Shown: positions 2,431-64,000 of the stretch, one piece after another | How the letters are laid out: the number at the start of each line of letters is the position of its first letter | Position numbering within the stretch: position 1 is the stretch's first letter | DNA from: Escherichia phage QL01 | Length of the DNA stretch: 64,000 bases | Direction: 5' to 3' (one strand) | Sequence record: NC_028847.1 | Made by a program: the position numbers and the translations under genes | The notes under the pieces: generated by a model | What the model saw: only the letters and a program-made list of their open reading frames with translations | Told to the model about the DNA's origin: nothing | Databases searched by the model: none

Positions 2431-2506
2431 AGTATTTCCTTCAGTTGGTTAACGTTTTGTAATCCATGAGGACATTATACCCTGTCCTCTGAGGTTTGTA
2501 AACATT

Positions 2507-2905
2507 TTATTTCATTTTTGCGAGGCAGATTTCATTGGCTTCCCATTGAGCTTGCTTAATAATAGCTTTGGATACAGGAACCCTTTGGCCATAAGTTTTT
2601 GATGTTGAGAGAACAATATGTTTGTTTGCTTCATTATGCCAGCCCCATGATTTTTCGCCATGAGTACCTTTAACTACAGCTGACACCTCAACAGAGCAAC
2701 CACCATCAGAAATCTTGGTTTCGACAACCCATTCATTTCTCTCGACAGCTTCAATTTCCAATCTAGTTTTTTCTTCATACATCGCGGCCCAATCAGTTTT
2801 TGCCAAGTTGAAAGCAAGAGCTTTCTCTAATTCTTTGGCATATTTTTGTTGTTCGGGTGTTAATGAATTATACAACTCTTGCATTTCTTTATCTTCGATA
2901 TTCAT
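2507..2905 (-). CDS. hypothetical protein
   Basis: 132 aa ORF. Confidence 0.5.
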   Translation of the reverse strand: MNIEDKEMQELYNSLTPEQQKYAKELEKALAFNLAKTDWAAMYEEKTRLEIEAVERNEWVVETKISDGGCSVEVSAVVKGTHGEKSWGWHNEANKHIVLSTSKTYGQRVPVSKAIIKQAQWEANEICLAKMK

Positions 2906-2964
2906 TATGTTCTCCTCAAATTATGGGGCTCATAATATCTTAATAATGAGCCCATGTAAACGTT

Positions 2965-3228
2965 TTATTTCATATTATTGAAATAATTTTCTGCATCAAA
3001 ATCACTACCATGGTAAACTTTGGTAGACGATTTGGCGTAACCTTCAGCTGAGAACATATTAATCACAACTTTAATTGTATACCACTGTCCATCTTCATTA
3101 CCCATTACTGCATAGGTTTCATACACCGGGTGTTCAGGACCGATAACCTTAATATCGTTAACTGTGGCACCAAATTCTTCCGGAACACATTTCATAAAGA
3201 AATTAAACACTTCACCATAATTATCCAT
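2965..3228 (-). CDS. hypothetical protein
   Basis: ORF track start is GTG at 3243; ATG at 3228 has GGAGAG RBS; early promoter cassette immediately upstream. Confidence 0.5.
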   Translation of the reverse strand: MDNYGEVFNFFMKCVPEEFGATVNDIKVIGPEHPVYETYAVMGNEDGQWYTIKVVINMFSAEGYAKSSTKVYHGSDFDAENYFNNMK

Positions 3229-3263
3229 TTTACTCTCCTTCACTCTGTTGTTTTGATAGGTCT

Positions 3264-3292
3264 ATAGTATCATGTTCTACGAAAGAGTAAAC
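3264..3292 (-). promoter_or_regulatory. T4-type early promoter cassette (GTTTAC -35, TACTAT -10), copy 1 of 5
   Basis: minus strand reads GTTTAC-N16-TACTAT then agacctatcaaaac leader; same cassette at 6381, 6949, 41601, 57436. Confidence 0.5.
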
Positions 3293-3311: not shown

Positions 3312-3344
3312 GAAACAAAAAAGGCCCAACCTTTCGGAAGGGCC
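3312..3344 (-). terminator. intrinsic terminator (hairpin with GAAA loop plus U-run), copy 1 of 3 identical hairpins
   Basis: ggcccaacctttcggaagggcc at 3323-3344; A-run on plus strand gives U-run on minus strand. Confidence 0.5.
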
Positions 3345-3349
3345 TAGAA

Positions 3350-3904
3350 TCAGTTCTTGTAGAACCGGAATGGGTTTATGTGGAAGGCTAACATAGCCTT
3401 AGGGATTTTACGAGACAAAAGGCTCTTAAGCTTCCAACCACAGTACACGCGAAGGTAAAAGGTAATCCCACCAACCTTAAGATATGGAACTGAAGCAAAT
3501 ACACCCCAGGCGTCGTCATTCCACATCCATAACCACCCGTGATGAGCTTTATCAGGAGAACCGGATTCCACGTCGGGATTACCTCGATAATGGAATTCCG
3601 AGCTACAATCACGACCGAGTTTATGGTAAGCAAAGTTATAAGCTTTATTTCGCCATAGCCAAGCTACTCTCTGAAGATAAACACCACCCGGCATTTTCCT
3701 GATGTTAGCCCAACGTTTAATATGACCTTTATCACCGTCAATTGGATTATCGTATGTCATCATCCAATCAAAGCCGTACGGTAATTTACCTGTCTTTTTA
3801 TTGTGGAAAGGAACCACAAATGGTGCAAGGATAACAGCCAGAACCATAGAGATAAAATCCAGTGGAACCAACAGAACCCAACTCAAATATTTTAAAAGTT
3901 TCAT
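3350..3904 (-). CDS. hypothetical protein with N-terminal hydrophobic segment
   Basis: ORF 3350..4009 trimmed to ATG at 3904 (MKLLKYLSW...), downstream of terminator hairpin. Confidence 0.45.
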   Translation of the reverse strand: MKLLKYLSWVLLVPLDFISMVLAVILAPFVVPFHNKKTGKLPYGFDWMMTYDNPIDGDKGHIKRWANIRKMPGGVYLQRVAWLWRNKAYNFAYHKLGRDCSSEFHYRGNPDVESGSPDKAHHGWLWMWNDDAWGVFASVPYLKVGGITFYLRVYCGWKLKSLLSRKIPKAMLAFHINPFRFYKN

Positions 3905-3920
3905 ATATTTCTCTAAGTTA

Positions 3921-3943
3921 ACCAAAAAGCCCCAGACGGGGCT
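3921..3943 (-). terminator. terminator hairpin after internal-protein gene
   Basis: gccccagacggggc hairpin at 3929-3942 flanked by A/T runs on both sides. Confidence 0.45.
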
Positions 3944-3947
3944 TTCG

Positions 3948-4412
3948 TTATTTGATTTGTTTAGCAGACCAGATACGGTCTTTGATGATTTTCTGAATAT
4001 CTTCAACATACTCTAAGTCGTGAGCATGTGGATTATCTTTGAAGCTATGTGCTCGTGCCAGTTTCTGGCCTTCTGTTTTGATTACTAAAAGCTCTTTAAG
4101 AATTGCTTCATACTTAGAAATAATTCCTTTGGCGATATTTTTTTCTTGAGCGGCTTTAGGGTCCGCTTTTGACGCAGGTGCTTTACCTGTAGCTTTCTGG
4201 AACAATTCACCTGAGGCAGCTAGGCTTTTAAAAACTCGGCTAACAGTATTGGCATTAGTAAAACCTTCGGCTTTAAAATCTTTAATAAAACGGAAACGTT
4301 CTTCATCAGAGGCGTCTTTGTAAGAATATTTACCTGCTTGAATTGCTGCAATCGCAGCGGCTTTTACATCTGAACTAGATTGTTCAGTCAAAAATTCATT
4401 GTAAGTTTTCAT
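3948..4412 (-). CDS. internal protein (IP-like) with capsid-targeting N-terminus
   Basis: starts MKTYNEFLTE, matching the T4 IP capsid-targeting sequence as recalled (MKTYQEFIAE); own late promoter and terminator. Confidence 0.7.
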   Translation of the reverse strand: MKTYNEFLTEQSSSDVKAAAIAAIQAGKYSYKDASDEERFRFIKDFKAEGFTNANTVSRVFKSLAASGELFQKATGKAPASKADPKAAQEKNIAKGIISKYEAILKELLVIKTEGQKLARAHSFKDNPHAHDLEYVEDIQKIIKDRIWSAKQIK

Positions 4413-4857: not shown

Positions 4858-4932
4858 TGGTATCCCGCCCTGGGATCGAACCAGGACCGCAAACTTAGAA
4901 GGATCGTATGCTATCCATTACACCAGCGGGAC
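4858..4932 (-). tRNA. tRNA-Arg (anticodon UCU)
   Basis: 75 nt cloverleaf folded by hand: acceptor GTCCCGC/GCGGGAT, T-arm CCTGG-TTCGATC-CCAGG, anticodon loop CTTCTAA, encoded CCA. Confidence 0.85.
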
Positions 4933-4937: not shown

Positions 4938-5014
4938 TGGTGACCCAGACCAGATTTGAACTGGTAACCTTTCCCTTATGAGGGGACTGCTGCTAACCAT
5001 TGAGCTACAGGGCC
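4938..5014 (-). tRNA. tRNA with CAU anticodon (Ile-lysidine type or Met)
   Basis: 77 nt: acceptor GGCCCTG, T-arm ACCAG-TTCAAAT-CTGGT, anticodon loop CTCATAA, encoded CCA; 5 nt from tRNA-Arg. Confidence 0.75.
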
Positions 5015-5751: not shown

Positions 5752-6159
5752 TTAACCCTCGTCTACAATAGTATGGGTATTAGCATTAACAATCTGCCAC
5801 CAGTCACAGTCAAAACGATTAGAACCGTAACGAGGCTTTTTCTCATTTTCGTTAATAATATCACGTAGTTCGTCTTCAGAAAATGCTTTAGCGATTAAAT
5901 CGGTATAGCCGCCACGTGGATAATAGTTATCACCTGCGAACAGAAGGAAATTTACTTTACCAGAAGGAACATATGCTTCCTTAGGATACTTGTTTCCTGC
6001 TTGGTCTACCACTTCAATATAACGGTAAGGAATATCGGTACTTTCAACCCATTGCCAAGCTGCAGCAGGGGATTCAAAAGCATCTACACCTAAACGGTTA
6101 TCTTCATCTTTAGACGGATTATTTTCATAATCCGCATATACATAATATTCAATGTTCAT
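5752..6159 (-). CDS. hypothetical protein
   Basis: 135 aa ORF. Confidence 0.5.
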   Translation of the reverse strand: MNIEYYVYADYENNPSKDEDNRLGVDAFESPAAAWQWVESTDIPYRYIEVVDQAGNKYPKEAYVPSGKVNFLLFAGDNYYPRGGYTDLIAKAFSEDELRDIINENEKKPRYGSNRFDCDWWQIVNANTHTIVDEG

Positions 6160-6344
6160 TATTCACCTTTAGAGATTTTATCCATAACGAAAGAAATTGA
6201 ACCAATTAAGAATGCCACTACTAAAGAGATTATATTCTCGGAAGTTGAAAGCATATCGAGCATGAATCCTGCAAACATACTAAAGCCAAAAGCAGTAACA
6301 GCGGCCAGTGCAGTAACATTTCTAATTAATTCACAACGTTTCAT
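6159..6344 (-). CDS. small membrane protein
   Basis: ORF track start is TTG at 6356; ATG at 6344 with GGAGA RBS; hydrophobic helices; early promoter cassette upstream. Confidence 0.5.
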   Translation of the reverse strand: MKRCELIRNVTALAAVTAFGFSMFAGFMLDMLSTSENIISLVVAFLIGSISFVMDKISKGE

Positions 6345-6380
6345 TTTATTCTCCAATCACTCATTTGTTTTGATAGGGCT

Positions 6381-6410
6381 ATAGTACCATCACTAAAGCC
6401 CGTTGTAAAC
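6381..6410 (-). promoter_or_regulatory. T4-type early promoter cassette, copy 2
   Basis: GTTTAC ... TACTAT agccctatcaaaac on minus strand. Confidence 0.5.
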
Positions 6411-6412
6411 AA

Positions 6413-6685
6413 TTATTTTAAATAAATTGCATATTTTTTATAACCAGCCGTCTCGTGGCGCAGCCCTTTTTCATTAGCAAAACGTTCAATATTGTTAATT
6501 TGATTCTGGTCGAGTTCTGAAGTATCAAATACAAAAAAGTTTCGCTTATTGCCTAAAGTTACGTGATTAGTCAAATCGATGTTATAGAGATGATTTATAT
6601 TATCAATCATGGTCTTAACAGATTTGTTAATTTTTACTTCTTCATTAAGAATAGATTCAGCGATAAATTCTTGGTATGATTTCAT
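6413..6685 (-). CDS. internal protein (IP-like) with capsid-targeting N-terminus
   Basis: starts MKSYQEFIAE. Confidence 0.65.
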   Translation of the reverse strand: MKSYQEFIAESILNEEVKINKSVKTMIDNINHLYNIDLTNHVTLGNKRNFFVFDTSELDQNQINNIERFANEKGLRHETAGYKKYAIYLK

Positions 6686-6686: not shown

Positions 6687-6911
6687 TTATTCAGCGCCAG
6701 CGGCTTTCAAAAGTTTTTTAAGATTGGCTATGCCGCCAGCAGAAAACGTGACCTTGCCACCTTTTTCATTGATAGAGCCAGTCAATTTAGCAAGCTTATC
6801 ACTAGGGACTTTTTTAAAATCAGCCAGTGTGCCATCAAAGGTTTTTGTAACAATTGGCAGTTCATCTTCATGTCTTTTAGCTTCGGTGATAAATTCTTGA
6901 TAAGTTTTCAT
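6687..6911 (-). CDS. internal protein (IP-like) with capsid-targeting N-terminus
   Basis: starts MKTYQEFITE; early promoter cassette upstream. Confidence 0.65.
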   Translation of the reverse strand: MKTYQEFITEAKRHEDELPIVTKTFDGTLADFKKVPSDKLAKLTGSINEKGGKVTFSAGGIANLKKLLKAAGAE

Positions 6912-6948
6912 TTTGATTTCCGTTTGGTTAGTTTGTTTTGATAGGTCT

Positions 6949-6977
6949 ATAGTATCATGCCTATAGACCTTGTAAAC
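6949..6977 (-). promoter_or_regulatory. T4-type early promoter cassette, copy 3
   Basis: GTTTAC-N17-TACTAT agacctatcaaaac on minus strand. Confidence 0.5.
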
Positions 6978-7689: not shown

Positions 7690-8443
7690 TTTTATTTCCT
7701 AATAATTTATCAATAGTGGTGTATAGTTCAGAAAGAGTGCCGTTATTTTCAACAACAACGTCACCAGGTAAAATTGGTAGACCCGCTTCAGTGATGTGCG
7801 AGTCTTGTACTTGACCGGTTTCAGCGCGAACTACATGAATAATCGTAGCACCCATCGCTCTGAGCGAATCAATTTCGTGTGTTTGACGAACATCAGGTAC
7901 GACATAGTATTTCGCATCAGAGTATATTTTATCAAAATAGTCTAAAGCGAACAACTTAACCCAATACATCTTATCAAATTGGTTAACAATAATATCAGTC
8001 CCAAGGGTCTGCATGAGACGACGTACTGACCAATTGTTATTTTTATTTATTACTTCAAACAGTTGGTCTTTTGTTTCTTCAGACAGATACTGGACTGGGG
8101 TAAGACCATAATGATATGCGGTACGAACATCCATTCCTGGAATAGGAAGGATATTATTCAGTTTGACAATAGCATTTTCAAAGATATCAATCACATCATA
8201 TGGTTTTAAAGGAATGATTTCTTCACGGTCGTAACCGATACCTTCAAAACAGTTAAAATCTAGTTTAGGCATGTAACTACGGTCGAATACAGGGTCATCA
8301 GAGATGTATTCATAGGCTTCAGCCAGATACTTTTTAATAGGACCTGCGAGCTGAAATTTTACCGAATCCATATTTTCGATTACATAGTTAGCAACGGTAT
8401 CCTTACCGCTACGTTTGATTCCTACAATTGATATTAGTTTCAT
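7682..8443 (-). CDS. 1: gp1 deoxynucleoside monophosphate kinase
   Basis: 253 aa with P-loop GIKRSGKDT; T4 order 57A-1-3-2-4. Confidence 0.8.
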
Positions 8444-9115: not shown

Positions 9116-9766
9116 TTATTTTATAAATTCACGTAGTCTTACTGGTGTCATAAAAGGCCATTTGGCTATAGTTGGTTTTATCCAGTATCTTTCGTGGCAT
9201 GTAGCTTTAAATGCCCGAACCATATCCTTGGCCTCTTCTATAGTATCCACACCAAATTGTTCACAAGTTTCCTTTCTGGCTTTATCCCATCTCCGTTTAG
9301 AAAGCTCCGCTTGGAGTTCTTTATTGGCAAAACGGCCATTATTCCTATCATGAGTGGTTCCTTTTGTAGGACTCCATCCTCGTCCCTTTACAAATCCTTC
9401 AGGAATCGGTTCACCCGGAAACAGCTTAATACACTTCTTGCCATTATTATAATAAACCTTTCCTGTTTGGGTTGCTGTGATATTCTCAGAGTGCTTACGT
9501 TTAAGCCAGCCGTAAAGCTTATTAGAACGACGAGGGCCTTGAGTCATTGTCATAGCTGCAAAAGTTAGACCAGGATGTCCTGGATGCATTTTAACTAATA
9601 GTTGATGTGCTAAATAATGTTCTTCAGGAGTTAAATCAACTAAGTTTGTAGATTCATCACCTCCACCCATACATCTAGGTAAAATATGATGAGATTCGGT
9701 ATAACAGGATAGTGCTCGTCCTTGAGCACGTGTAATTAATGAAGAATATATTTTCTGGTAATTCAT
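9116..9766 (-). CDS. HNH homing endonuclease (Mob-like)
   Basis: motif ESHHILPRCMGGGDESTNLVDLTPEEHYLAH; ATG at 9766 overlaps gp2 stop; inserted between genes 2 and 3. Confidence 0.75.
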   Translation of the reverse strand: MNYQKIYSSLITRAQGRALSCYTESHHILPRCMGGGDESTNLVDLTPEEHYLAHQLLVKMHPGHPGLTFAAMTMTQGPRRSNKLYGWLKRKHSENITATQTGKVYYNNGKKCIKLFPGEPIPEGFVKGRGWSPTKGTTHDRNNGRFANKELQAELSKRRWDKARKETCEQFGVDTIEEAKDMVRAFKATCHERYWIKPTIAKWPFMTPVRLREFIK

Positions 9767-10602
9767 TATGCCTTCTTCCAAACTTTCTGAGCTGAATAAC
9801 GCTTACCTTTCGATACAAATTGCTGAAGTGGTAATCCTATTACATTAGCCCAATCAGATGGTTTTATCTCTACTAAAGGTCCCTTAATATTTCCAGGGAT
9901 ATAAGCCTTAATCATCACGTCGGCGCCAGCGAATCCTTTTACCTTACTCCAATCGATTTTTAATTTAGTCGAGTTCGTAATGGTAGGCGTACTCGCGTAT
10001 TGCTTCAGCAATTCTTCCAGAAATTGCTGACGTGCTTTAGGTGGAATATAGTGTAAGTTCAGTCCGTACATTAAATTATGCTTACCTAACCCAAGATAAA
10101 TTATTAAAGGATATTTGTCCCAGTATGGTAGGGTATCCTTATGTTTGGCATCATAGATATAAGCATAAAGCTTACCAGGAGACGGTTTAGATACCTGGTG
10201 TCCACGAATTCCTTTCTTTAATGTTTCTGTAAACCATTTAGCTGATTTATTGTTTACGGCAGCGCCTTCGTTAGCAATCTTATCGCGAATACTCTTTCTA
10301 AAACTATTCACCAAAATTAATTGACGTTCGGCTTTGGTTAATTTATTGCCAGGTTTCTTCTGAAGTTTTTCAACCTGTACAGCAGTTTTAATTCGACTCG
10401 AGTATCGAGACATCGCAGATGTAAAGCTAGAATACTTGATGCCTTTATCTTCAGCGAATTTCTTAGCCGAAACACCTTTAGCCTTAGCGTTGGCATATTC
10501 AACGCCTAAAGTTATCCATTGTTGTTCTGAACGAGTAGGCTTGGAACCTTTTGTAGTTTCAGTAGCCTCGTTGATGTAAGAAAATATACTCATCCTTTCC
10601 AT
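9766..10602 (-). CDS. 2: gp2 DNA end-protector protein
   Basis: 278 aa, synteny and size (T4 gp2 about 274 aa). Confidence 0.7.
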
Positions 10603-11687: not shown

Positions 11688-13429
11688 TGATTAACATGTC
11701 TGATAATGTAAGTTGGTTCGTCGGTGTAGTTGAAGACCGAATGGACCCACTCCAACAAGGCCGAGTACGCGTGCGCGTATGGGGTATGCATCCATATGAA
11801 AAAGTACAAGGCCCTGTAAAAGGCCTTCGTACAGAAGATTTACCATGGATGTCGGTATTAATGCCTACATCTTCTGCCTCTGTTTCAGGTATCCAAACCG
11901 CTATGACTGGTATGGTCCCCGGTACACAAGTTTATGGTCACTTTCTTGATAAGTGGAAATTAAACGGACTTGTCCTTGGTACATACGGTTCCGCTTCAAG
12001 ACAGAAGGCTAATCCTAATGAAGGGTTTAGTGACCCTACAGGCCAATATCCGCTTTATTTAGGTAACGATGCTGCTGCTTTAAACCGAGGTGGTGAAGTT
12101 GGATACGATGCCACTTCTAACGTAATACAAGATGCAAACACTGATGTAGGTATTAATCCTGACGGGTTGGATTTAAGTCAAGTCAAACCAGACGATAATC
12201 CTAATTTCACAATAGAAAACATGCTTCATCGTGATGAAGGGCTTAGACTGAAGGTATATTGGGATACCGAAGGTTATCCTACTATAGGTATAGGCCACCT
12301 TATCACACCACAACCTATTAGAGATATGAATCGAATAAACAAAATATTATCTAATCAGGTAGGACGAGAAGTTAAAGGTAACCCTGGTGCAATATCAATG
12401 GATGAGGCTTCTAAATTATTCCAAGAAGACCTTAAAAAAGTCCAAAACGATATAGGTCGGCATAGTGTTGTAGGTCCTGTTTACAATAAAGAAAACCGTT
12501 CAAGACAAATGGCTCTTGAAAACATGGCTTTCCAAATGGGATTAGGTGGATTGGCTAAATTCCGTGGAATGCTTAGTGCAATGCTAATAGGCGATTATAA
12601 AAAGGCATTTGAGGAAGCTCGTAATTCAGTATGGTTTAACCAAACTAAAGGTCGCGCATCAAGGGTGTCAATGATTATCCTCACAGGTAACATGGAATCA
12701 TATGGTATTATGGCCCCTAAAGAAAGGTCATTTAATGGCCGTTCGTATAGAATGATTCAAACCTTTGTGGCCCCTACAAATTCAGACCCTGCCGACCCGT
12801 GGACTCCAGAAGACACAAGGATTCTTTTTAAAGAACCTGATTCTAGTTATAAAGGCGAATATCCATATGTCCAAACCATGCAAACTGAAGGCGGGCATAT
12901 CCAAGAATTCGATAATACCCCAGGGCAAGAACGATACCGTTTAATCCATCCTACCGGTAGTTATGAAGAAGTTGCTCCTGATGGACGTAAAACTTCTAAG
13001 ACGGTAGCCGATGGTTATTATATGACCCAAGGCGATTCAAATACTTATGTTGGTGGTAATAATAAAGTCAACGTTGGTGGCGATGAAACCTATTATAATA
13101 TGGCAAACGTGCGTCGTCAGACTGATGGAAACGAAACCATCCATATTCGCGGTAATGAAGAGAAAACTGTAGAAGGTAATGGCACCCTTCGTGTTAAAGG
13201 TAATGTTACTGTTATTGTTGAAGGAAATGCTGATGTTACTGTTAAGGGTGATGCAACTACCTTAGTTGAAGGTAATGAAACTCGTACGACCAATGGTAAT
13301 TTAAATTGGACAGTAAACGGTACCGTTTCTTGGACTTGTGCAGGTGCGTGGTCCGAGACTATGGCTTCAATGAGTTCTATTGCATCTGGTCAATATACTA
13401 TTGATGGTTCGAGGATTGACATTGGCTAA
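11687..13429 (+). CDS. 5: gp5 baseplate hub / tail lysozyme
   Basis: 580 aa with lysozyme motif EGYPTIGIGHLIT and C-terminal beta-helix VxGxxxV repeats. Confidence 0.9.
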   Translation: MINMSDNVSWFVGVVEDRMDPLQQGRVRVRVWGMHPYEKVQGPVKGLRTEDLPWMSVLMPTSSASVSGIQTAMTGMVPGTQVYGHFLDKWKLNGLVLGTYGSASRQKANPNEGFSDPTGQYPLYLGNDAAALNRGGEVGYDATSNVIQDANTDVGINPDGLDLSQVKPDDNPNFTIENMLHRDEGLRLKVYWDTEGYPTIGIGHLITPQPIRDMNRINKILSNQVGREVKGNPGAISMDEASKLFQEDLKKVQNDIGRHSVVGPVYNKENRSRQMALENMAFQMGLGGLAKFRGMLSAMLIGDYKKAFEEARNSVWFNQTKGRASRVSMIILTGNMESYGIMAPKERSFNGRSYRMIQTFVAPTNSDPADPWTPEDTRILFKEPDSSYKGEYPYVQTMQTEGGHIQEFDNTPGQERYRLIHPTGSYEEVAPDGRKTSKTVADGYYMTQGDSNTYVGGNNKVNVGGDETYYNMANVRRQTDGNETIHIRGNEEKTVEGNGTLRVKGNVTVIVEGNADVTVKGDATTLVEGNETRTTNGNLNWTVNGTVSWTCAGAWSETMASMSSIASGQYTIDGSRIDIG

Positions 13430-13439
13430 TATTTTACCT

Positions 13440-13961
13440 ATGAGCACAGATTTAGGAGACTCCATGGAAGGAGCCTCAATCGATGTTACGTTTACTGCTC
13501 AATTAGAAACAAACGAAACATTAGTTGAAATAAATATAACAGAATATGAGCCTACAGAAGGCATTATTGTCGATGGAGCTCATTTATATGGAACCTACGA
13601 ATCGGTATTTGGATTCTCTGAAGATGCCTTGAAATATCGATTAAACGATGAATTTAAAACAGCCGGTTCATGGAAAGACTTACCAGGCGATAGTAACACT
13701 CAATTATACCTCTGGAAAGCCCCTAGTAATCTCCAGAAGACGTTTTCTTACACAGTCACATTAATCTATGACTTTCAAGAAGAGTCATCAGGAGGTGATA
13801 CAGGGAACTCAGGCGGTAGTAATTCTAGGGCCGGTAGCGAAATAGACCCTCCTCCGGCTCCTGTAAGAAAAACCCTTACTAAGGTTTATACCAAGGTTAT
13901 TGTCGGTAATTGGTCCAAATGGGCAAATCAATTAAGAGAATACGTATATGCGAGGCCATAA
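13440..13961 (+). CDS. 5.1: gp5.1-like protein
   Basis: ORF 13380..13961 trimmed to ATG after gp5 stop; position between gp5 and gp5.4. Confidence 0.55.
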   Translation: MSTDLGDSMEGASIDVTFTAQLETNETLVEINITEYEPTEGIIVDGAHLYGTYESVFGFSEDALKYRLNDEFKTAGSWKDLPGDSNTQLYLWKAPSNLQKTFSYTVTLIYDFQEESSGGDTGNSGGSNSRAGSEIDPPPAPVRKTLTKVYTKVIVGNWSKWANQLREYVYARP

Positions 13962-14255
13962 ATGTCAGGCTTAAGTTATAACCAATGCGTAACAGCAGGT
14001 CATGAAGCGTGGCCTCCTACAGTAATAAATGCCACTCAAGGTAAAGTATTTACAGGTGGTATTCCTGTATTAGTTGCAGGAGACCCTATTACAGAACACA
14101 CAGAAATTAAAAAACCATATGAAACCCATGGTGGGGTAACCCAACCTAGAACATCAAAGGTGTATGTTACAGGCAAAAAGGCTGTCCAGATGGCAGACCC
14201 TATTTCGTGCGGAGATACAGTCGCACAAGCCTCATCTAAAGTATTCATAAAATAG
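13962..14255 (+). CDS. 5.4: gp5.4 PAAR-repeat spike tip protein
   Basis: 97 aa, same size as T4 gp5.4; position after gp5. Confidence 0.7.
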
Positions 14256-31875: not shown

Positions 31876-33858
31876 ATGGCTTTATTATCACCGGGCATTG
31901 AGCTCAAAGAAACGTCCGTACAGAGTACTGTCGTTCGTAACGCAACGGGTCGTGCAGCGCTGGTTGGTAAATTCCAGTGGGGCCCTGCTTTCCAGGTAAC
32001 TCAGATTACTAATGAAGTTGAACTGGTCGACTTATTTGGAGGTCCTAATAACGAAGTTGCTGATTACTTCATGTCGGGTATGAACTTCCTCCAGTATGGT
32101 AACGACCTTCGTACTGTTCGTGTTGTTAACCGTGAATTCGCTAAAAACGCGTCTCCGGTAGCGGGTAACGTCCAAACCACTATTACTACTGCAGGTTCTA
32201 ACTATGCGGTAGGCGATAAAATTAATATCAAATATAACCAGACTGTTGTTGAATCTGAAGGTCGTGTGACTTCTGTAGATACGGATGGTAAAATTCTTTC
32301 CGTGTTTATCCCATCAGCAAAAATTATTGCTTATGCACGTTCTTTAAACCAGTATCCGAACCTCGGCCCGGCATGGACTGCTGAAGTAACTTCTGCCTCT
32401 TCAGGTGTTTCTGGTACTATTACCGTTGGTAAAATCGTAACCGATTCCGGTATTCTTTTGACCGAAGCAGAGAACAGTGAAGAAGCTATTACTTCCCTAG
32501 AATTCCAAGCGTCTCTTAAACAGTTTGGTATGCCTGGCGTGGTCGCTCTTTATCCTGGTGAAATTGGCAGCACCTTAGAAGTAGAAATTGTTTCTAAAGC
32601 AGCTTATGATGTCGGTTCTTCTAAAATGCTGGATATTTATCCTGGCGGTGGTACCCGTGCTTCTATTGCCAAGGCAGTATTTAACTACGGCCCACAAACA
32701 GATGACCAATACGCAATTATTGTTCGTCGTGATGGCGCTATCGTAGAATCTGTCGTACTTTCTACCAAAGAAGGTGAAAAAGACGTTTACGGTAATAACA
32801 TTTATCTTGACGACTATTTCGCTAAAGGTACTTCTAACTATATTTTTGCTACCTCTTTGAATTGGCCTAAAGGCTTCAGTGGTATCATCAATCTTATGGG
32901 TGGTGTATCTGCTAACGATCAGGTTACTGCGAGTGATTTGATGCAGGGTTGGGATTTGTTTGCCGACCGTGAAGCACTCCATATTAACCTTTTGATTGCT
33001 GGTGCTGTTGCCGGTGAAGGTGATGAAGTTGCTTCTACCGTCCAGAAACACGTTGTTAGTATTGCTGATGAACGTCAGGATTGCTTGGCATTTATTTCTC
33101 CTCCTAAAGGACTGTTGGTTAACGTTCCATTGACTCGTGCAGTAGATAATCTTATCGACTGGCGTACCGGTGCAGGTACTTTCGATACCAACAACATGAA
33201 CATTAGCACCACTTATGCTGCTATTGATGGTAACTATAAATATCAGTATGACAAATATAATGACGTAAACCGTTGGGTGCCTCTGGCCGCTGATATGGCT
33301 GGTTTGTGTGCACGTACTGATGATGTTTCTCAGCCTTGGATGTCTCCGGCAGGTTATAACCGTGGCCAGATTCTTAACGTTCTGAAATTGGCAATTGAAC
33401 CGCGCCAAGCTCAACGTGACCGCATGTACCAAGAAGCTATTAACCCAGTTGTTGGTTTTGCTGGTGGCGATGGTTTCGTATTGTTTGGTGATAAGACTGC
33501 AACCAAAGTTCCATCTCCGATGGACCACATTAACGTTCGCCGTCTGTTCAACATGCTTAAGAAAAATATCGGTGATGCCTCTAAATATAAACTGTTTGAA
33601 TTGAACGACAACTTCACTCGTTCAAGCTTCCGTATGGAAGTTTCTCAGTACTTAGATGGTATTAAGGCACTTGGTGGGATTTATGAAGGACGCGTGGTTT
33701 GTGATACTACAGTGAACACCCCTGCGGTTATTGACCGTAACGAGTTTATTGCTAATATATACATCAAACCGGCGAGATCGATAAATTATATCACTCTTAA
33801 TTTCGTGGCTACTTCTACCGGTGCAGATTTTGACGAGTTGATTGGACCACTAGTTTAA
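31876..33858 (+). CDS. 18: gp18 tail sheath protein
   Basis: 660 aa, synteny and size (T4 gp18 659 aa). Confidence 0.9.
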   Translation: MALLSPGIELKETSVQSTVVRNATGRAALVGKFQWGPAFQVTQITNEVELVDLFGGPNNEVADYFMSGMNFLQYGNDLRTVRVVNREFAKNASPVAGNVQTTITTAGSNYAVGDKINIKYNQTVVESEGRVTSVDTDGKILSVFIPSAKIIAYARSLNQYPNLGPAWTAEVTSASSGVSGTITVGKIVTDSGILLTEAENSEEAITSLEFQASLKQFGMPGVVALYPGEIGSTLEVEIVSKAAYDVGSSKMLDIYPGGGTRASIAKAVFNYGPQTDDQYAIIVRRDGAIVESVVLSTKEGEKDVYGNNIYLDDYFAKGTSNYIFATSLNWPKGFSGIINLMGGVSANDQVTASDLMQGWDLFADREALHINLLIAGAVAGEGDEVASTVQKHVVSIADERQDCLAFISPPKGLLVNVPLTRAVDNLIDWRTGAGTFDTNNMNISTTYAAIDGNYKYQYDKYNDVNRWVPLAADMAGLCARTDDVSQPWMSPAGYNRGQILNVLKLAIEPRQAQRDRMYQEAINPVVGFAGGDGFVLFGDKTATKVPSPMDHINVRRLFNMLKKNIGDASKYKLFELNDNFTRSSFRMEVSQYLDGIKALGGIYEGRVVCDTTVNTPAVIDRNEFIANIYIKPARSINYITLNFVATSTGADFDELIGPLV

Positions 33859-33886
33859 GTTTACTTGCTCTAAGCTTTATGGTATA

Positions 33887-34543
33887 ATGCGCGTATACAC
33901 AATACGCGCAAGGATTTCTAAAGTGATTATTACTAAATTTGTTGATGTAAAAATAAATACTAACAATTACAGTTATTTCTTAGACTTAGGGTATGAGTTG
34001 GAACCTCTAGGAGCACCGAAGCATGGGCATAAGTGCCAAACTATTCGAGCAAAAGTTTCTGATTTAAAGGATGGTTCTAATAAAGAAGTTCAATGTATCT
34101 GCGATAAATGTGGCACAGAATTCAAACAAAGGATTGCTAGAAATACCGATGTATGTTATCCTTGTAGGCGTCATGAAGCTCTTATAGGTAACACCAACGG
34201 TAAAGCTAATAAAGGTAAAACTCTACCTCATATGCAAGGTGAAAACCATCCAAGATGGAACCCTAATAAATCTGAATACTTTGCTTATGCATCAAAGGTT
34301 AGAGCTGTTACTTATGCTTGTAAAGACGAGTGGATGGCTTGGGAAAATGCAGATAAAATAGGGTTATGTGGAGTTGAAGGTGCTTACCAATTAGACCATA
34401 AGGTTTCAGTAGCTTATGGATTCTATAACCATATCCCAGCAGAGATAATTGGACAATTATCAAATTTAGAAATAATCACTTGGGAATCCAATAGAGCTAA
34501 AAGTAAGTCTAGTTCAATAGACTTATGGGACTTACTATCCTAA
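33887..34543 (+). CDS. HNH homing endonuclease (start possibly GTG at 33923)
   Basis: C-terminal motif YQLDHKVSVAYGF...NLEIITWESNRAKS plus CxxC...CxxC zinc-finger; inserted between gp18 and gp19. Confidence 0.65.
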   Translation: MRVYTIRARISKVIITKFVDVKINTNNYSYFLDLGYELEPLGAPKHGHKCQTIRAKVSDLKDGSNKEVQCICDKCGTEFKQRIARNTDVCYPCRRHEALIGNTNGKANKGKTLPHMQGENHPRWNPNKSEYFAYASKVRAVTYACKDEWMAWENADKIGLCGVEGAYQLDHKVSVAYGFYNHIPAEIIGQLSNLEIITWESNRAKSKSSSIDLWDLLS

Positions 34544-34687
34544 ATAAATTATATCTCCTTAATCTATTATCCCAGGCTGTAATATAAAGAACCTAAAACC
34601 ATTATACCATGAGTTTGGTTACAGCGTACATCACGCAGAATTGCGCCTGGGGTTGATTATTCTTTAGGAATATGATTTATCAACTGT

Positions 34688-35239: not shown

Positions 35240-35268
35240 GTTTTTACTTTTATAGCAAATTATGATAG

Positions 35269-35276
35269 TATAAATA
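35269..35276 (+). promoter_or_regulatory. late promoter TATAAATA upstream of GIY-YIG endonuclease gene
   Basis: exact TATAAATA about 30 nt upstream of ATG at 35307. Confidence 0.5.
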
Positions 35277-35306
35277 CATTCAAACAATGAAGTCAAGGAG
35301 TTTAGA

Positions 35307-35888
35307 ATGTATTGTACTTACTTAACCATATACACGGGGTCTAAACTACCCCGTCGTTATATTGGCTCAACATACGTTGAAAGGATTCTCAAAGAAGGAT
35401 ATAATGGTTCTGTATTATCCCAAGCATATAAAAAGATTTGGAATCTAGAACGTAAAGAAAATCCGCACCTTTTCAAAACCAGAATTTTATCTTTATTTGA
35501 AACCGATAAAGAAGCTCGTATAGCTGAGAAAGAGCTTCAAATAAAGTATAATGTAGTTAAATCTAAAAACTATATAAATATGTCATTAGCTCAGCCTGAC
35601 GGGTTCTTTGGAATGTCTCGTAAAGGGATTCCAATGAGTGAACATGCCAAACAGCTACAAAGAGATTGTAGGTTAGGTAAAAAGAGGCCTGAACATTCTA
35701 AAGCTCTAAAAGGACGTAAGCGACCAGACCAAGCCAAAGCTATGTCTGGTGAAGGTAATCCGATGTTTGGTAAAGAACATCCGGCTAAAGGCAAAAAGAT
35801 TAATCAGCCAAGGATGATTTGCCCTATCTGTGGTGTTGAATCAACTCGTTCGGCTATAACACGTTATCACAAACATGAAAATGAATGA
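35307..35888 (+). CDS. GIY-YIG homing endonuclease (Seg-like)
   Basis: N-terminal YLTIYTGSKLPRRYIGST GIY-YIG motif; repeated NUMOD3-like K/R-rich motifs; inserted between gp19 and gp20. Confidence 0.75.
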   Translation: MYCTYLTIYTGSKLPRRYIGSTYVERILKEGYNGSVLSQAYKKIWNLERKENPHLFKTRILSLFETDKEARIAEKELQIKYNVVKSKNYINMSLAQPDGFFGMSRKGIPMSEHAKQLQRDCRLGKKRPEHSKALKGRKRPDQAKAMSGEGNPMFGKEHPAKGKKINQPRMICPICGVESTRSAITRYHKHENE

Positions 35889-39695: not shown

Positions 39696-41255
39696 ATGAA
39701 AAAGAATGCATTAGTTCAAAAATGGTCCGCTCTGCTGGAAAACGAAGCCCTTCCTGAAATCGTGGGTGCTTCTAAACAAGCTATCATCGCTAAAATTTTC
39801 GAAAACCAGGAACAAGACATCCTGACTGCTCCGGAATACCGTGATGAAAAAATCTCTGAAGCATTTGGTTCTTTCCTGACCGAAGCTGAAATTGGTGGTG
39901 ACCACGGTTATGATGCTACCAATATCGCAGCTGGCCAGACTTCTGGTGCTGTAACTCAGATTGGGCCGGCAGTAATGGGTATGGTTCGTCGTGCTATTCC
40001 TCATCTGATTGCTTTTGATATTTGTGGTGTTCAGCCTCTGAATAACCCTACCGGCCAGGTATTTGCCCTTCGTGCAGTTTATGGTAAAGACCCTATCGCT
40101 TCTGGCGCTAAAGAAGCTTTCCATCCGATGTATTCTCCAGACGCTATGTTCTCTGGTCAGGGTGCTGCTGAAACTTTCGAAGCACTGGCTGCAAGCAAAG
40201 TTCTGGAAGTTGGTAAAATTTATTCTCACTTCTTCGAAGCTACCGGTGCTGCACACTTCCAGGCTGTCGAAGCCGTAACCGTTGATGCTGCTGCTACTGA
40301 TGCCGCTAAACTGGATGCTGCTGTTACCGCTTTGATTGAAGCTGGTAAGTTGGCTGAATTGGCTGAAGGTATGGCTACTTCTATCGCTGAACTTCAGGAA
40401 GGCTTTAACGGTTCTACCGATAACCCGTGGAACGAAATGGGCTTCCGCATCGACAAACAAGTTATCGAAGCTAAATCCCGTCAGCTGAAAGCAAGCTACT
40501 CTATCGAACTGGCACAGGACCTTCGTGCAGTACACGGTATGGATGCAGATGCTGAACTGTCCGGTATCCTTGCTACCGAAATTATGCTCGAAATCAACCG
40601 TGAAGTTATCGATTGGATTAACTACTCTGCACAGGTTGGTAAATCTGGTATGACCAACACCGTTGGCGCTAAAGCTGGTGTGTTTGACTTCCAGGACCCG
40701 ATTGATATCCGTGGTGCTCGTTGGGCCGGTGAGAGCTTTAAAGCCCTTCTGTTCCAGATTGATAAAGAAGCAGCCGAAATCGCTCGTCAGACCGGTCGTG
40801 GTGCTGGTAACTTCATCATCGCTTCCCGTAACGTAGTTAACGTACTGGCTGCAGTTGATACTTCTGTAAGTTATGCAGCTCAAGGTCTGGGTCAAGGTTT
40901 CAACGTTGACACAACCAAAGCAGTATTTGCCGGTGTTCTTGGTGGTAAATATCGCGTTTACATCGACCAGTATGCACGTTCCGATTACTTCACCATCGGT
41001 TATAAAGGCGCTAACGAAATGGACGCAGGTATCTACTATGCTCCGTACGTTGCACTGACCCCGCTGCGTGGTTCCGATCCGAAGAACTTCCAACCGGTAA
41101 TGGGCTTCAAAACTCGTTACGGTATCGGTATCAACCCGTTCGCTGACCCTGCTGCTCAGGCTCCTACCAAACGTATCCAGAATGGTATGCCTGACATCGT
41201 TAACAGCCTTGGTCTGAATGGTTACTTCCGTCGCGTATATGTTAAAGGTATCTAA
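39696..41255 (+). CDS. 23: gp23 major capsid protein
   Basis: 519 aa; long stretches match recalled T4 gp23 (e.g. LPEIVGASKQAIIAKIFENQE, GYFRRVYVKGI C-terminus). Confidence 0.95.
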   Translation: MKKNALVQKWSALLENEALPEIVGASKQAIIAKIFENQEQDILTAPEYRDEKISEAFGSFLTEAEIGGDHGYDATNIAAGQTSGAVTQIGPAVMGMVRRAIPHLIAFDICGVQPLNNPTGQVFALRAVYGKDPIASGAKEAFHPMYSPDAMFSGQGAAETFEALAASKVLEVGKIYSHFFEATGAAHFQAVEAVTVDAAATDAAKLDAAVTALIEAGKLAELAEGMATSIAELQEGFNGSTDNPWNEMGFRIDKQVIEAKSRQLKASYSIELAQDLRAVHGMDADAELSGILATEIMLEINREVIDWINYSAQVGKSGMTNTVGAKAGVFDFQDPIDIRGARWAGESFKALLFQIDKEAAEIARQTGRGAGNFIIASRNVVNVLAAVDTSVSYAAQGLGQGFNVDTTKAVFAGVLGGKYRVYIDQYARSDYFTIGYKGANEMDAGIYYAPYVALTPLRGSDPKNFQPVMGFKTRYGIGINPFADPAAQAPTKRIQNGMPDIVNSLGLNGYFRRVYVKGI

Positions 41256-41271
41256 GATATAACCTTATTAT

Positions 41272-41300
41272 GGGAGACTTCGGTCTCCCATTCTTGTTTC
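41272..41300 (+). terminator. intrinsic terminator after gp23
   Basis: gggagacttcggtctccc hairpin (UUCG loop) followed by attcttgtttc. Confidence 0.55.
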
Positions 41301-41304: not shown

Positions 41305-41571
41305 TTATGCAATCTTAACTCGGCGGTTGATGATATCACGGAAGTCAATACGATTTTCTTGGATTTTCAGCCAGTTACCAGATTTGTCTTTGGTATGGGT
41401 AGAGTATTCACCGTTCCACCAGAAGTCGGTAGCATAAGCCATGGCTTCGTATTTCTTAACTAAGGCATTCACTGCATTACCATTAGGATTGTTACCGAAT
41501 TTTTCTACCAGAGCTTTGATGTCTTTATCAAGAGCGGAAAGAGTAGTACGAATAAAGTTTAACTTGTTCAT
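41305..41571 (-). CDS. hypothetical protein, early-promoter driven, antisense to the late block
   Basis: ORF 41305..41586 trimmed to second ATG with AGGAG RBS; early promoter cassette upstream. Confidence 0.5.
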   Translation of the reverse strand: MNKLNFIRTTLSALDKDIKALVEKFGNNPNGNAVNALVKKYEAMAYATDFWWNGEYSTHTKDKSGNWLKIQENRIDFRDIINRRVKIA

Positions 41572-41600
41572 TTTTAATCTCCTCATGTTTTGATAGGTCT

Positions 41601-41630
41601 ATAGTAACATGTGAGAATCTTGCTGTAAAC
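41601..41630 (-). promoter_or_regulatory. T4-type early promoter cassette, copy 4
   Basis: GTTTAC ... TACTAT agacctatcaaaac on minus strand. Confidence 0.5.
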
Positions 41631-41636: not shown

Positions 41637-41644
41637 TATAAATA
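41637..41644 (+). promoter_or_regulatory. late promoter TATAAATA for gp24
   Basis: exact TATAAATA about 29 nt upstream of gp24 ATG. Confidence 0.55.
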
Positions 41645-41672: not shown

Positions 41673-42956
41673 ATGGCAAAGATTAACGAATTACTGCGCG
41701 AGTCAACAACTACTTCCAGCAACTCATTGGGTCGCCCTAATCTTGTTGCTTTGACCCGTGCTACAACCAAATTGATTTACCGTGATATTATCGCCGAACA
41801 ACGTACTAGCCAGCCTATTGCTGCACTGTATGGTGTCAAATATCTTACCCCTGATAATGAATTTAGTTTCCAGACAGGTGCCTCTTATGGTGGTGAAGTT
41901 GGTTCTAAAGACCGTGAAACTATCCCAGAACTCACAGATAAGGCCCAGGCGATTGCTCAGGGTGAATATTTCAAGTACCAGAATGTGGTTTATAAGGCTC
42001 TTAAAGCAAGCCCACTCGCGTCCACTAGCGCCACAGAATTGGCTGAGGCTCTTCAAGAAGGTTTAGTGTCATTAACATGTCGTCTGGTTCCTGATGCTGC
42101 CCATACCACTAAATTTGAAGCGAGTGATGTAGAAATCTCTGATGCTGTATTCCAGGTTAATAAATGGAATGCTCCGGTTAAGACCCGTAAATTGAAGACG
42201 GCTTTGACTGTAGAATTAGCGCAGGATATGGAATCAAATGGCTTTGACGCGCCGGCGTTCTTAGAAGACCTCTTGGCTACAGTAATGGCAGATGAAATTA
42301 ATAAAGACGTTCTGCAATCTCTAATAACCGTATCCAAACGTTATAAAGTTACTGGTGTATCTGATAACGGCATCATCGATTTGTCTTATGACAGTGCTCC
42401 TGAATCTGCACGTAAACTTTATGAACTCGTTTGTGAGATGAATTCTGAAATCCAGAAAACTACTTCTTATTCTGGCACGTTTGTTGTGGCTTCAAGTCGT
42501 GTGGCTGCAATGCTTGCAGGTTCTGGCTGGTTAAAACATAAACCCGAAGATAATAATTGGCTTCCGGAAACTGCATACGGATATTTGTTGAATGGGCTGC
42601 CTCTGTTTTGTGACGTTAACAGTCCATTAGATTATGTTACCGTTGGTGTTAAAGAGAATTACGGCGGTAATGAAGTTGTCGGTTCTATTTTCTACGCTCC
42701 CTATACCGAAGGCTTAGATTTAGATGACCAAGAACACGTCGGTGCTTATAAGGTTATTGTTGACCCGGATTCATTACAACCTTCTATTTCTCTGATGGTT
42801 CGTTATGCACTATCAGCTAACCCGTACACCGTGGCTAAAGACGATAAAGAAGCTCGTGTTATCGATGCAACCAATATGGATTTAATGGCTGGGCAGAGCA
42901 ATATGTCTTATCTGGTTGGCGTTAAACTTCCGGCAATTATTTACGAGGCTGATTAA
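41673..42956 (+). CDS. 24: gp24 capsid vertex protein
   Basis: 427 aa, MAKINELLRESTTT..., near-identical in places to recalled T4 gp24. Confidence 0.9.
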   Translation: MAKINELLRESTTTSSNSLGRPNLVALTRATTKLIYRDIIAEQRTSQPIAALYGVKYLTPDNEFSFQTGASYGGEVGSKDRETIPELTDKAQAIAQGEYFKYQNVVYKALKASPLASTSATELAEALQEGLVSLTCRLVPDAAHTTKFEASDVEISDAVFQVNKWNAPVKTRKLKTALTVELAQDMESNGFDAPAFLEDLLATVMADEINKDVLQSLITVSKRYKVTGVSDNGIIDLSYDSAPESARKLYELVCEMNSEIQKTTSYSGTFVVASSRVAAMLAGSGWLKHKPEDNNWLPETAYGYLLNGLPLFCDVNSPLDYVTVGVKENYGGNEVVGSIFYAPYTEGLDLDDQEHVGAYKVIVDPDSLQPSISLMVRYALSANPYTVAKDDKEARVIDATNMDLMAGQSNMSYLVGVKLPAIIYEAD

Positions 42957-45384: not shown

Positions 45385-45633
45385 TTACTTTGAACTAGAA
45401 CGCGCTTTGCGCCGAACCTTGTTGTTCAATCTTTTACGATAAACAACCTTTTCTTTCGCTTTAAATTTGGCCTTGGCTTGTTCTACATCAACCCATGCTT
45501 TGGCCATGTCCTTAGCGGTCCCGCCCATTTTTTTAGCAATTTCTATAAAATTCAACCCAGATTCGTGTAAAAAATGTACTTTAACCTTATCCATAACAAT
45601 TCTCTCGTTGAGTTGGTAAACCCATCTTAACAT
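45385..45633 (-). CDS. hypothetical small basic protein, possibly DNA-binding (true start may be internal)
   Basis: 82 aa ORF with helix-turn-helix-like segment and Lys/Arg-rich tail. Confidence 0.4.
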   Translation of the reverse strand: MLRWVYQLNERIVMDKVKVHFLHESGLNFIEIAKKMGGTAKDMAKAWVDVEQAKAKFKAKEKVVYRKRLNNKVRRKARSSSK

Positions 45634-45697
45634 AGAATTTTTAACTTGTAAACAGGAATTTTGTACTTTAATGCAAAATGGGCCTTGCGGCCCATTA

Positions 45698-57089: not shown

Positions 57090-57107
57090 GGAGAGCATAT
57101 GCTCTCC
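57090..57107. terminator. bidirectional terminator hairpin between gp54 and minus-strand ORF
   Basis: ggagagcatatgctctcc perfect palindrome flanked by A-run upstream and T-rich run downstream. Confidence 0.5.
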
Positions 57108-63998: not shown

Positions 63999-64000
63999 CT

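Follow-up and report, generated by a model that had tools for sequence, protein, structure and literature searches.

What is the function of a sequence element that recurs five times on the minus strand of a 64,000-nucleotide stretch (the window) of Escherichia phage QL01 (NC_028847.1)? The initial annotation took the repeats for T4-type early promoters placed before small minus-strand genes, and this view was borne out by the sequence and by comparison, namely by the promoter architecture, the WG01 genome and the T4 denV block. The five elements are very probably early promoters of the T-even type, read by the host polymerase (sigma-70), with their activity and timing predicted. A pattern search of the window for GTTTAC-N15-19-TACTAT gave exactly five matches, all on the minus strand and all at the positions previously assigned. 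The number of matches expected from shuffles of the 64-kb window was 0.08, and five were reached in 0 of 100 shuffles. The 20-mer TACTATAGACCTATCAAAAC occurred with one mismatch at most in four of the five copies, against an expected 0.00 in the window. The copies and their genes are as follows.

3264-3292, minus strand: predicted early promoter copy 1; -35 at 3287-3292, TGa and -10 TACTAT at 3264-3269; would drive the e.8 homologue; 50.8 bits.
3250-3263, minus strand: copy 1 discriminator and leader, AGACCTATCAAAAC.
3235-3238 and 3226-3228, minus strand: copy 1 Shine-Dalgarno (SD) sequence GGAG and ATG of ORF 2965-3228 (87 aa, phrog_2678).
3313-3345, minus strand: terminator-like hairpin AGGCCC...GGGCCT with a T-run, just upstream of copy 1, giving a terminator-promoter module.
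6381-6410, minus strand: predicted early promoter copy 2; -35 at 6405-6410, -10 at 6381-6386; 48.9 bits.
6159-6344, minus strand: copy 2 gene, trna.4 homologue (phrog_1692).
6949-6977, minus strand: predicted early promoter copy 3; -35 at 6972-6977, -10 at 6949-6954; 54.3 bits.
6687-6911 and 6413-6685, minus strand: copy 3 genes, internal-protein genes (phrog_8765, internal virion protein; phrog_7673, internal head protein).
41601-41630, minus strand: predicted early promoter copy 4; -35 at 41625-41630, -10 at 41601-41606, leader at 41587-41600.
41579-41582 and 41569-41571, minus strand: copy 4 SD GGAG and ATG of ORF 41305-41571 (88 aa, phrog_6003).
57436-57465, minus strand: predicted early promoter copy 5; -35 at 57460-57465, -10 at 57436-57441, divergent leader; 42.3 bits.
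57414-57417 and 57405-57407, minus strand: copy 5 SD GGAG and ATG of ORF 57117-57407 (DUF5498).

The -35 hexamer GTTTAC was exact in all five copies. Each -10 conforms to TAnnAT (A2 and T6) and is extended immediately 5′ by TGn (TGa, TGg, TGa, TGt and TGg in copies 1 to 5). The hexamers are spaced by ∼17 bp in every copy, and each copy has an A-rich, UP-like element (-40 to -44) in the form of an A-tract that reaches from about -38 to -43. The spacer, earlier given as 16–18 nt, measures 17 or 18 nt from GTTTAC to TACTAT, and 16–17 nt when the -35 is taken as TTTACA. Every copy faces an ORF in the early direction, and the ribosome-binding site and ATG that had been announced within about 35 nt are present in all five, with 28–37 nt between the -10 and the ATG. 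The conserved core of the proposed ∼45-bp element was recovered, but the conserved span reaches ∼65 bp when the A-tract and TGn are counted. Sharing of the leader holds for four copies; copy 5 (57436) lacks it and has TACTATTACCTTACACAAAC instead. The variable leader position was misplaced as (a/g)gacc, since the copies read AGACCT or AGCCCT. Counted against the promoter assignment were a TACTAT that equals TATAAT at four of six positions (the key A2 and T6 are kept and TGn is present), the lack of the AGACCTATCAA block in copy 5, which is otherwise equivalent, and GGAA in place of GGAG in copy 3.

Elements of this kind are already known and are a well-described T4-like feature. T4 is said to have a sigma-70 "uber" class of early promoters (Wilkens & Rueger 1996; Miller et al. 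2003). Its early promoters are UP/-35/TGn/-10 promoters with additional consensus regions (Hinton 2010, PMC2988021). Logos from T4-like genomes display GTTTAC at -36 to -31 and an A-rich stretch at -40 to -44, C is preferred at -3 to -1, and many early promoters of these genomes lie upstream of novel ORFs (Nolan 2006, PMC1524935). The window copies share with T4 early promoters GTTTAC, the A-rich UP region, TGn, TAnnAT, the 17/18 spacing and a C-rich -3 to -1 region, and they likewise lie directly upstream of small early ORFs in a uniform early orientation. They differ in the discriminator (AGACCT in Dhakavirus, commonly ACAACT in T4), in the UP region (TTTAAAAAGTT here vs. TTTCACAAAGTT in T4) and in the motif CAAAAC, present in four window copies, vs. 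CAACTA in most WG01 and T4 copies. These differences are a lineage-level shift of the consensus alone. The T4 denV promoter reads GTTTAC-ATCTCCTGTAGGTATGA-TACTAT-AGACCTATCAACTACAGGAG, with an N17 spacer, and its -10/downstream block TACTATAGACCTATCAAC is identical to that of the window. The first 100 kb of T4 contain 21 promoters of the class, with ACAACTATCAACTAC common after a TACTAT -10, and T4 early-type promoters are found upstream of e.8, trna.4 and ipI, the orthologous positions of copies 1–3.

In the mechanism that we propose, host sigma-70 RNA polymerase would read each element as soon as infection has begun. The UP element would be the A-rich tract near -40, the -35 would be GTTTAC(A), and TGn with TACTAT would form the extended -10. 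Transcription would start ∼7 nt past the -10, so that AGACCT would be the discriminator and the RNA 5′ end would lie near AUCAAAAC; with such a start, the "leader" of the repeat would be mostly discriminator (-6 to -1) plus the ∼8 first transcribed bases. The resulting RNA leader of ∼22–31 nt would close with a strong GGAG SD and the ATG, and a RegB cut at such an SD context, as in T4, would keep the gene product from being made beyond the early period. The near-identical -35/UP and -10/leader halves may, in addition, provide short homology patches between copies, and recombination at these patches would add, remove or re-promote small genes. What the sequences show is the architecture of the elements, the statistics, their distribution in the family, their conservation and the exchange junctions; the start site, the timing, cutting by RegB and the mechanism of recombination are inferred.

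The RegB target is reportedly GG*AGRAYARAA (Durand et al. 2006). A GGAG SD with a RegB context was found in four of the five leaders (copies 1, 2, 4 and 5); the seven RegB positions after GGAG were matched 7/7 in copy 2, 6/7 in copies 1 and 4, and 5/7 in copy 5. The RegB context of copy 1 is GGAGAGTAAAA, and the SD context of copy 2 is GGAGAATAAAA. In T4 early mRNAs, GGAGRAYARAA defines strong RegB cleavage sites (PMC3014915), and a regB homologue is annotated in WG01. With their GGAG SD and A-rich context, the four leaders resemble the T4 targets and hold candidate sites by sequence; copy 3, whose SD is GGAA with no GGAG, differs from them. Each unit looks like a promoter, a short leader, a RegB-type SD and an ORF.

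The elements had also been described as a distinct five-copy cassette. The matrix ranking and the WG01 set argue otherwise: five is the share of the window in a general early-promoter class, and the "five copies" are a subset because TACTAT was chosen as the -10. A weight matrix derived from 36 WG01 promoters, with aAAAAa.tGTTTAC as the upstream part of its consensus, was applied to the window. Its top five sites were the five copies, at 42–54 bits, and three more minus-strand members with other -10 hexamers were retrieved.

2474-2503, minus strand: further class member; -10 TATAAT, hairpin GAGGAC/GTCCTC around the -10.
2932-2961, minus strand: further class member; -10 TATTAT, hairpin ATGGGCTCAT/ATGAGCCCCAT around the -10.
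45624-45653, minus strand: further class member; -10 TAAGAT, upstream of the 24.3 homologue.

Judged by these scores, the five copies are the strongest members in the window of a genome-wide class, with ∼40 members per genome, that is common to T4. A plus-strand GTTTAC-N18-TATAAT was found at 33859-33888, and the late block contains two plus-strand promoter-like sites on inserted genes, one of which overlaps a late-promoter motif.

The window belongs to a T4-like phage of the genus Dhakavirus (Bp7/WG01/JS98 group), with 96–99% identity to WG01 over shared parts and 100% identity to Bp7 over the 701 bases tested. According to the WG01/Bp7 annotation, it opens on the minus strand with the e.x genes, after which come the tRNA region, the locus of the internal proteins, and genes 57, 1, 3, 2 and 4; genes 53 to 24 and 25 to 54 follow, interrupted by some blocks on the minus strand, and the alt genes close the window. 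A search of the complete WG01 genome for GTTTAC-N16-18-TAnnAT gave 40 sites, every one of them on the minus strand; in 36 an SD and an ATG follow within 60 nt. A 35-nt consensus (-10, block and SD) matched 1037 phage records, which come essentially from T4-like phages that infect many different hosts. An exact scan of public viral contigs for GTTTAC-N16-18-TACTAT-N6-TATCAA gave only 9 loci, too few for a covariation census, so covariation was followed in the full genome of WG01 and in 100 kb of T4. At gathering thresholds Rfam found two tRNAs only in the window and no match at the leaders, and Pfam found no domain in four of the five downstream proteins. The main value of the analysis is in annotation: at least eight predicted early transcription units are marked in a Dhakavirus genome, in records without promoter features. 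The current understanding of T4-type transcription is unchanged.

The elements might instead be mainly mobile regulatory cassettes or recombination linkers whose promoter activity is secondary, with near-identical halves and inverted repeats that direct homologous exchange of small genes. This reading is complementary to the promoter reading, and we rate it slightly below an even chance. The first 11 kb of the window were compared with five Dhakavirus genomes. In ABTNLsp5 window positions 2518-2955 are missing and a single hybrid promoter is found there; the crossover lies within ATGAAATAAAAyGTTTACA, which is common to the promoters at 2932-2961 and 2474-2503. At the place of copy 2 (6381-6410), WG01 has two cassettes instead of one, with an additional gene, ip7, between them. 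In IME281 an extra gene is located 12–26 nt upstream of copy 1, between copy 1 and the terminator hairpin (3313-3345 in the window), which is kept; copy 1 of IME281 retains the -10 and the leader, and its UP element, -35 flank and spacer differ. An extra ORF ends 14–20 nt upstream of copy 3 in both WG01 and IME281. Copies 1–3 are thus all at gene gain/loss junctions among relatives. Endpoints inside cassettes were seen in the ABTNLsp5 hybrid promoter, the ip7 cassette of WG01 and the exchanged upstream half of copy 1 in IME281, and recombination inside cassettes is directly attested by the hybrid promoters.

Two lines of evidence from other phages and from folding favor the same reading. In the PeSLs (promoter-early stem-loops) of RB49/phi1, too, a strong early promoter is accompanied by a stem-loop that lies over the -35 and the -10 or between them; these elements likewise precede small ORFs to which no function is assigned, and related genomes differ by genes gained or lost from one cassette to the next (Arbiol et al. 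2010, PMC2839356). PeSL subclasses have their stem-loops between or over the two hexamers, and PeSL-like sequences in JS98 and elements of the IP locus in T-evens were noted (PMC2839356); copies 2 and 3 of the window have spacer-specific hairpins. The PeSLs differ in having E. coli-consensus promoters and stems with G/C runs, whereas the window has T4-type GTTTAC and more A/T-rich stems, and Arbiol et al. call such T-even elements analogues, not homologues, of PeSLs (PMC2839356). Against a primary role in exchange, copies 1, 4 and 5 have no hairpin beyond chance, neither a dedicated recombinase nor circular intermediates are shown here, and promoter features are kept where no exchange is seen, for example in copy 4 across four genera. 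About nine junctions were counted, four of them near cassettes, which is not significant alone; enrichment of junctions at cassettes is unproven because viable indels must fall between genes anyway, and the junction positions could simply reflect that need. We keep the promoter reading as the primary one, and there is good precedent for a secondary role of the promoters, as patches of homology through which genes are shuffled. Promoter-mediated shuffling of genes would operate in this lineage as it does in T-even internal-protein loci and in RB49/phi1, and it helps to explain the turnover of small accessory genes in therapeutic coliphages.

The stem-loops themselves could be read in another way. 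Inverted repeats cover the promoter in two copies.

6376-6401, minus strand: copy 2 inverted repeat GGGCTtTAGTG / TACTAtAGCCC, spanning the spacer, the -10 and the discriminator.
6943-6970, minus strand: copy 3 inverted repeat, AGGTCTATAG (6961-6970) with CTATAGACCT (6943-6952), overlapping the -10.

The copy 3 hairpin has a folding energy of -19.1 kcal/mol (z -6.19; 0 of 200 shuffles were as stable) and that of copy 2 -16.0 kcal/mol (z -2.49). An A-to-C change in the copy 2 discriminator is matched by a T-to-G change in the spacer, giving AGCCC/GGGCT vs. AGACC/GGTCT elsewhere. When each spacer was exchanged for the spacers of other promoters and the folding energies were ranked, the native spacer came first for copy 2 (1/36) and for copy 3 (1/35). 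Copies 1, 4 and 5 had no hairpin beyond chance in the shuffle and spacer-swap tests, and spacer-to-SD pairing was at chance level in copy 1 (z 0.10, rank 23/35) and copy 4 (z -1.52, rank 19/35). A stem-loop over the promoter, as in the elements of Repoila or in PeSLs, is thus found in copies 2 and 3 alone; the hairpin of copy 1 lies instead upstream.

Early-promoter plus inverted-repeat elements flank T-even internal-protein genes (Repoila et al. 1994, via PMC2839356). By sequence and setting, copies 2 and 3 correspond to these elements of ∼70 bp reported in 1994 (PMC2839356): they lie in the 57B-ipI-trna.4 internal-protein locus, they flank MKTYQEFI(A/T)EA ORFs (ORF 6687-6911 begins with the internal-protein leader MKTYQEFITEA) and carry an inverted repeat over the promoter, and the gene content of the locus differs among close relatives, with junctions inside the elements. 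Nothing essential sets copies 2 and 3 apart from them, and the arms are allele-specific (AGGTCTATAG, GGGCTTTAGT). Copies 1, 4 and 5 differ in being outside internal-protein loci and without the repeat. As to the flanking genes, copy 3 leads to internal proteins and the other copies to ORFs of unknown function.

Possibly, although we consider it unlikely, the stem-loops act at the RNA level on read-through transcripts from upstream promoters, in the copies that have them. With the native spacer, 11 of 36 WG01 promoters had the lowest or next-to-lowest energy of their set, and 7 of 21 T4 promoters ranked 0 of 20; the spacer partners in such promoters were the -10 and discriminator, or the SD region. 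Paired arms change together (AGGTCT/AGACCT, GGGCT/AGCCC, AGGCT/AGCCT, and GGGAGC/GCTCC vs. GGGACC/GGTCC), as do spacer-to-SD pairs (ATCTCCTGTAGT/ACTACAGGAGAT, ATCTCCAGTAG/CTACTGGAG and TTCTCCTCATG/CATGAGGAGAA), and the T4 denV and regB promoters have the same pairing. For T4 e, soc, 49 and I-TevI, helices that hide the SD together with an internal promoter are established (PMC3014915), and PeSL stem-loops lowered downstream lacZ expression (PMC2839356). Several WG01 and T4 early spacers resemble these helices in being complementary to their own SD, and the SD would be free only in RNA started at that promoter; the known internal promoters, however, are late or middle ones, and in the five copies the pairing is weak or absent (PMC3014915 for the known cases). 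An action on RNA is also disfavored by the presence of hairpins in only 2 of the 5 window copies, where the pairing involves the -10 and discriminator and not the SD, and by the lack of a following U-run, which sets them apart from classic intrinsic terminators. In DNA these inverted repeats would form as well, which makes the RNA and DNA levels inseparable by sequence. As a general observation, the non-conserved spacer is often complementary to the downstream sequence of its own promoter.

The block from the -10 to about +8 (TGATACTATAGACCTATCAAC) was present in about half of the WG01 GTTTAC sites, and six further copies of this downstream block were located behind WG01 promoters with a degenerate -35. 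Non-coding CCTATCA was always behind promoters (18 with GTTTAC and 6 with a degenerate -35), and the downstream block was absent from non-coding WG01 DNA away from promoters. The block contains the dyad TGATA-N9-TATCA. The strong conservation of AGACCTATCAA is unexplained by known sigma-70 contacts. A sigma-dependent pause element, a -10-like sequence in the initial transcribed region, was considered and set aside, as TATCAA is without the final T.

It is very improbable that a phage factor uses this block as its operator and so silences early promoters a few minutes after infection. The block is as conserved as the hexamers in contact with polymerase, more than the known sigma-70 contacts account for; it is common to Dhakavirus, Mosigvirus, Tequatrovirus and others, it is never free-standing, and reviews describe the mechanism of early-promoter shut-off as not understood (PMC2988021; PMC3014915). 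However, no binding protein is known or indicated, and the TATAAT-class promoters of the same genomes and copy 5 are without the block, yet they would need shut-off too. The n of TGnTA varies while TATCA shows no compensating change, and selection for promoter strength or escape, or homogenisation via recombination, are alternative causes of the block. Nothing beyond conservation supports the block as a shut-off target.

Promoters of phage RNA polymerases were also considered. T7, SP6 and K11 promoters contain ACTATAG, and to our knowledge T4-like phages encode no single-subunit RNA polymerase. The likeness of TACTATAG to such a promoter is taken as a coincidence, the hexamer being exactly at the expected sigma-70 -10. 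The T4 middle promoter, with a MotA box (a/t)(a/t)TGCTT(t/c)a centred at -30, 11–13 bp upstream of the -10 and in place of the -35, was rejected, GTTTAC being present in all five copies. There is next to no probability that the elements serve as middle promoters (dependent on MotA/AsiA) or as late ones, or that the repeats arose by chance: the copy 2 spacer includes GCTTTA, which resembles a MotA-box core, and the late motif TATAAATA is abundant in the window (19 vs. 8 expected), but the -35 is GTTTAC with no MotA box there in 5/5 copies, the copy 2 GCTTTA is 7 nt from the -10 vs. the 11–13 nt required (PMC1524935), none of the five copies has TATAAATA on its own strand, and chance is ruled out by the pattern count (5 vs. 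0.08) and the 20-mer count (4 vs. 0.00).

Copies 4 and 5 had been placed as two islands within the plus-strand late block. This stands for copy 4 (41601), between genes 23 and 24, but copy 5 (57436) is at the boundary of the block, behind alt. The features around them are as follows.

41271-41290, no strand assigned: hairpin TGGGAGAC-TTCG-GTCTCCCA, between the gene 23 stop and the stop of the island ORF (41305-41307).
41637-41644, plus strand: late-promoter motif TATAAATA for gene 24, 29 nt before the ATG at 41673 and 6 nt from the copy 4 -35.
57090-57107, no strand assigned: perfect palindrome GGAGAGCATATGCTCTCC with A-run and T-run flanks, between gene 54 (plus strand) and ORF 57117-57407 (minus strand).

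The copy 4 ORF (41305-41571) occupies the gap that separates the stop codon of gene 23 (41253-41255) from the start of gene 24 (41673). Its predicted promoter marks it as a putative early gene, antisense and embedded between late genes 23 and 24. TATAAATA is the T4 late-promoter motif (PMC1524935), and the copy 4 early promoter and the gene 24 late promoter are back-to-back, 6 nt apart, with the gene 24 motif within the would-be UP-like A/T tract of copy 4. Copy 4 has an invariant GTTTACA and upstream A/T block in Dhakavirus, Mosigvirus, Gaprivervirus and a Tequatrovirus, in part because the block also holds the late motif on the plus strand, and the spacer varies; TACTAT and AGAC(C/T)TATCAA are kept in 4/5 sequences from these four genera. 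The content of the 23-24 intergenic site varies among phages: most Tequatrovirus have no gene there, T4 has segD, and elsewhere the site contains the copy 4 ORF with or without a homing endonuclease. A terminator was predicted after gene 23 in 6/6 genomes compared (Nolan 2006, PMC1524935), and the hairpin at 41271-41290 probably ends both convergent transcripts.

The copy 5 -35 begins 12 nt past the stop codon (57478-57480) of the minus-strand alt. Copy 5 precedes the last gene of the alt minus-strand block, which is convergent with gene 54, and the palindrome at 57090-57107 between the two looks like a bidirectional terminator. In both copies of the late region the unit closes with a hairpin that is common to the convergent late gene.

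When ABTNLsp5 (positions 2720-2830) was compared with positions 2518-2955 of the window, ORF 2507-2905 was precisely missing from ABTNLsp5, which carries a single hybrid promoter formed by the upstream part of the minus-strand early promoter at 2932-2961 and the downstream part of the one at 2474-2503. IME281 harbors an extra gene (3495-4340) between the terminator hairpin and the counterpart of the early promoter at 3264-3292 (copy 1). This gene has its own T4 late-promoter motif, TATAAATA, and its own terminator, and its ORF begins with MKTYN, resembling the internal-protein leader MKTYQEFITEA. The upstream half of the IME281 copy 1 promoter is T4-like (TTTCACAAAGTTGTTTAC).

Two plus-strand insertions were found in the late block, one of 702 bp relative to WG01 (33858-34560), immediately 3′ of gene 18, and one of 642 bp (35241-35883), 3′ of gene 19. 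Their features are:

33859-33888, plus strand, early-type promoter GTTTAC-N18-TATAAT at the exact start of the 702-bp insertion
33887-34543, plus strand, ORF of 218 aa carried by the 702-bp insertion (phrog_5104, unknown function)
35307-35888, plus strand, ORF for a homing-endonuclease-like protein (phrog_314 and phrog_10820 matches, weak SegE GIY-YIG match)

The segment 33858-34560 looks like a promoter-plus-gene unit that was inserted among the late genes and reads in the late direction. The 642-bp insertion begins with TTTTAC-N18-TAGTAT, and this promoter-like sequence is overlapped by TATAAATA (35269-35276), so that the insertion carrying ORF 35307-35888 may use a late promoter. A third insertion, of 640 bp (9119-9759), lies between genes 3 and 2 and is absent in all five Dhakavirus genomes compared:

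9116-9781, minus strand, ORF for a homing-endonuclease-like protein (phrog_655, E 2e-56)

Early and late promoters also adjoin each other at gene 24:

41637-41644, plus strand, gene 24 late-promoter motif TATAAATA, adjoining the -35 hexamer of early promoter copy 4 (41625-41630, minus strand)

Only 6 nt separate the two elements, and TATAAATA sits inside the UP-like A/T tract of the early promoter; the early promoter and the late promoter thus stand back-to-back and point away from each other. No variation was seen across four genera in the block containing this TATAAATA.

Seven early promoters have a -35/-10 spacer with complementarity to the Shine-Dalgarno (SD) region of their own gene, ∼35 nt downstream:

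WG01: 58172-58200, 55571-55599, 47056-47084, 7817-7845 and 139276-139304
T4: 65413 (denV) and 62797 (regB)

The two pairing arms covary from promoter to promoter in this set. The SD would be free only in RNA started at the promoter itself. No description of such complementarity in early promoters was found in the literature searched.

Other differences from relatives were observed. At 385-427 an indel junction has a 43-nt overlap, and three relatives have an extra ORF of ∼198 nt there; at 1607-1614 the window is without a ∼65-bp segment. Neither junction lies at a recognised promoter. The region 3′ of gene 5 (13243-14253) is unlike that of WG01 (1.0 vs. 2.3 kb), and is similar to the gp5.1/5.4 arrangement in PSD9, UGJNEcP4 and IME281.

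The window contains two gene 24 copies (42081-42932 and 43364-44221, ∼64% DNA identity) and multiple alt paralogues (58894-59480, 60909-61556 and 63027-64000, 67-77% identity), in agreement with the WG01 and Bp7 annotation. The only Rfam matches within the window are two tRNA genes, located where the annotation of relatives has tRNA-Arg and tRNA-Met:

4861-4932, minus strand, tRNA gene
4941-5014, minus strand, tRNA gene
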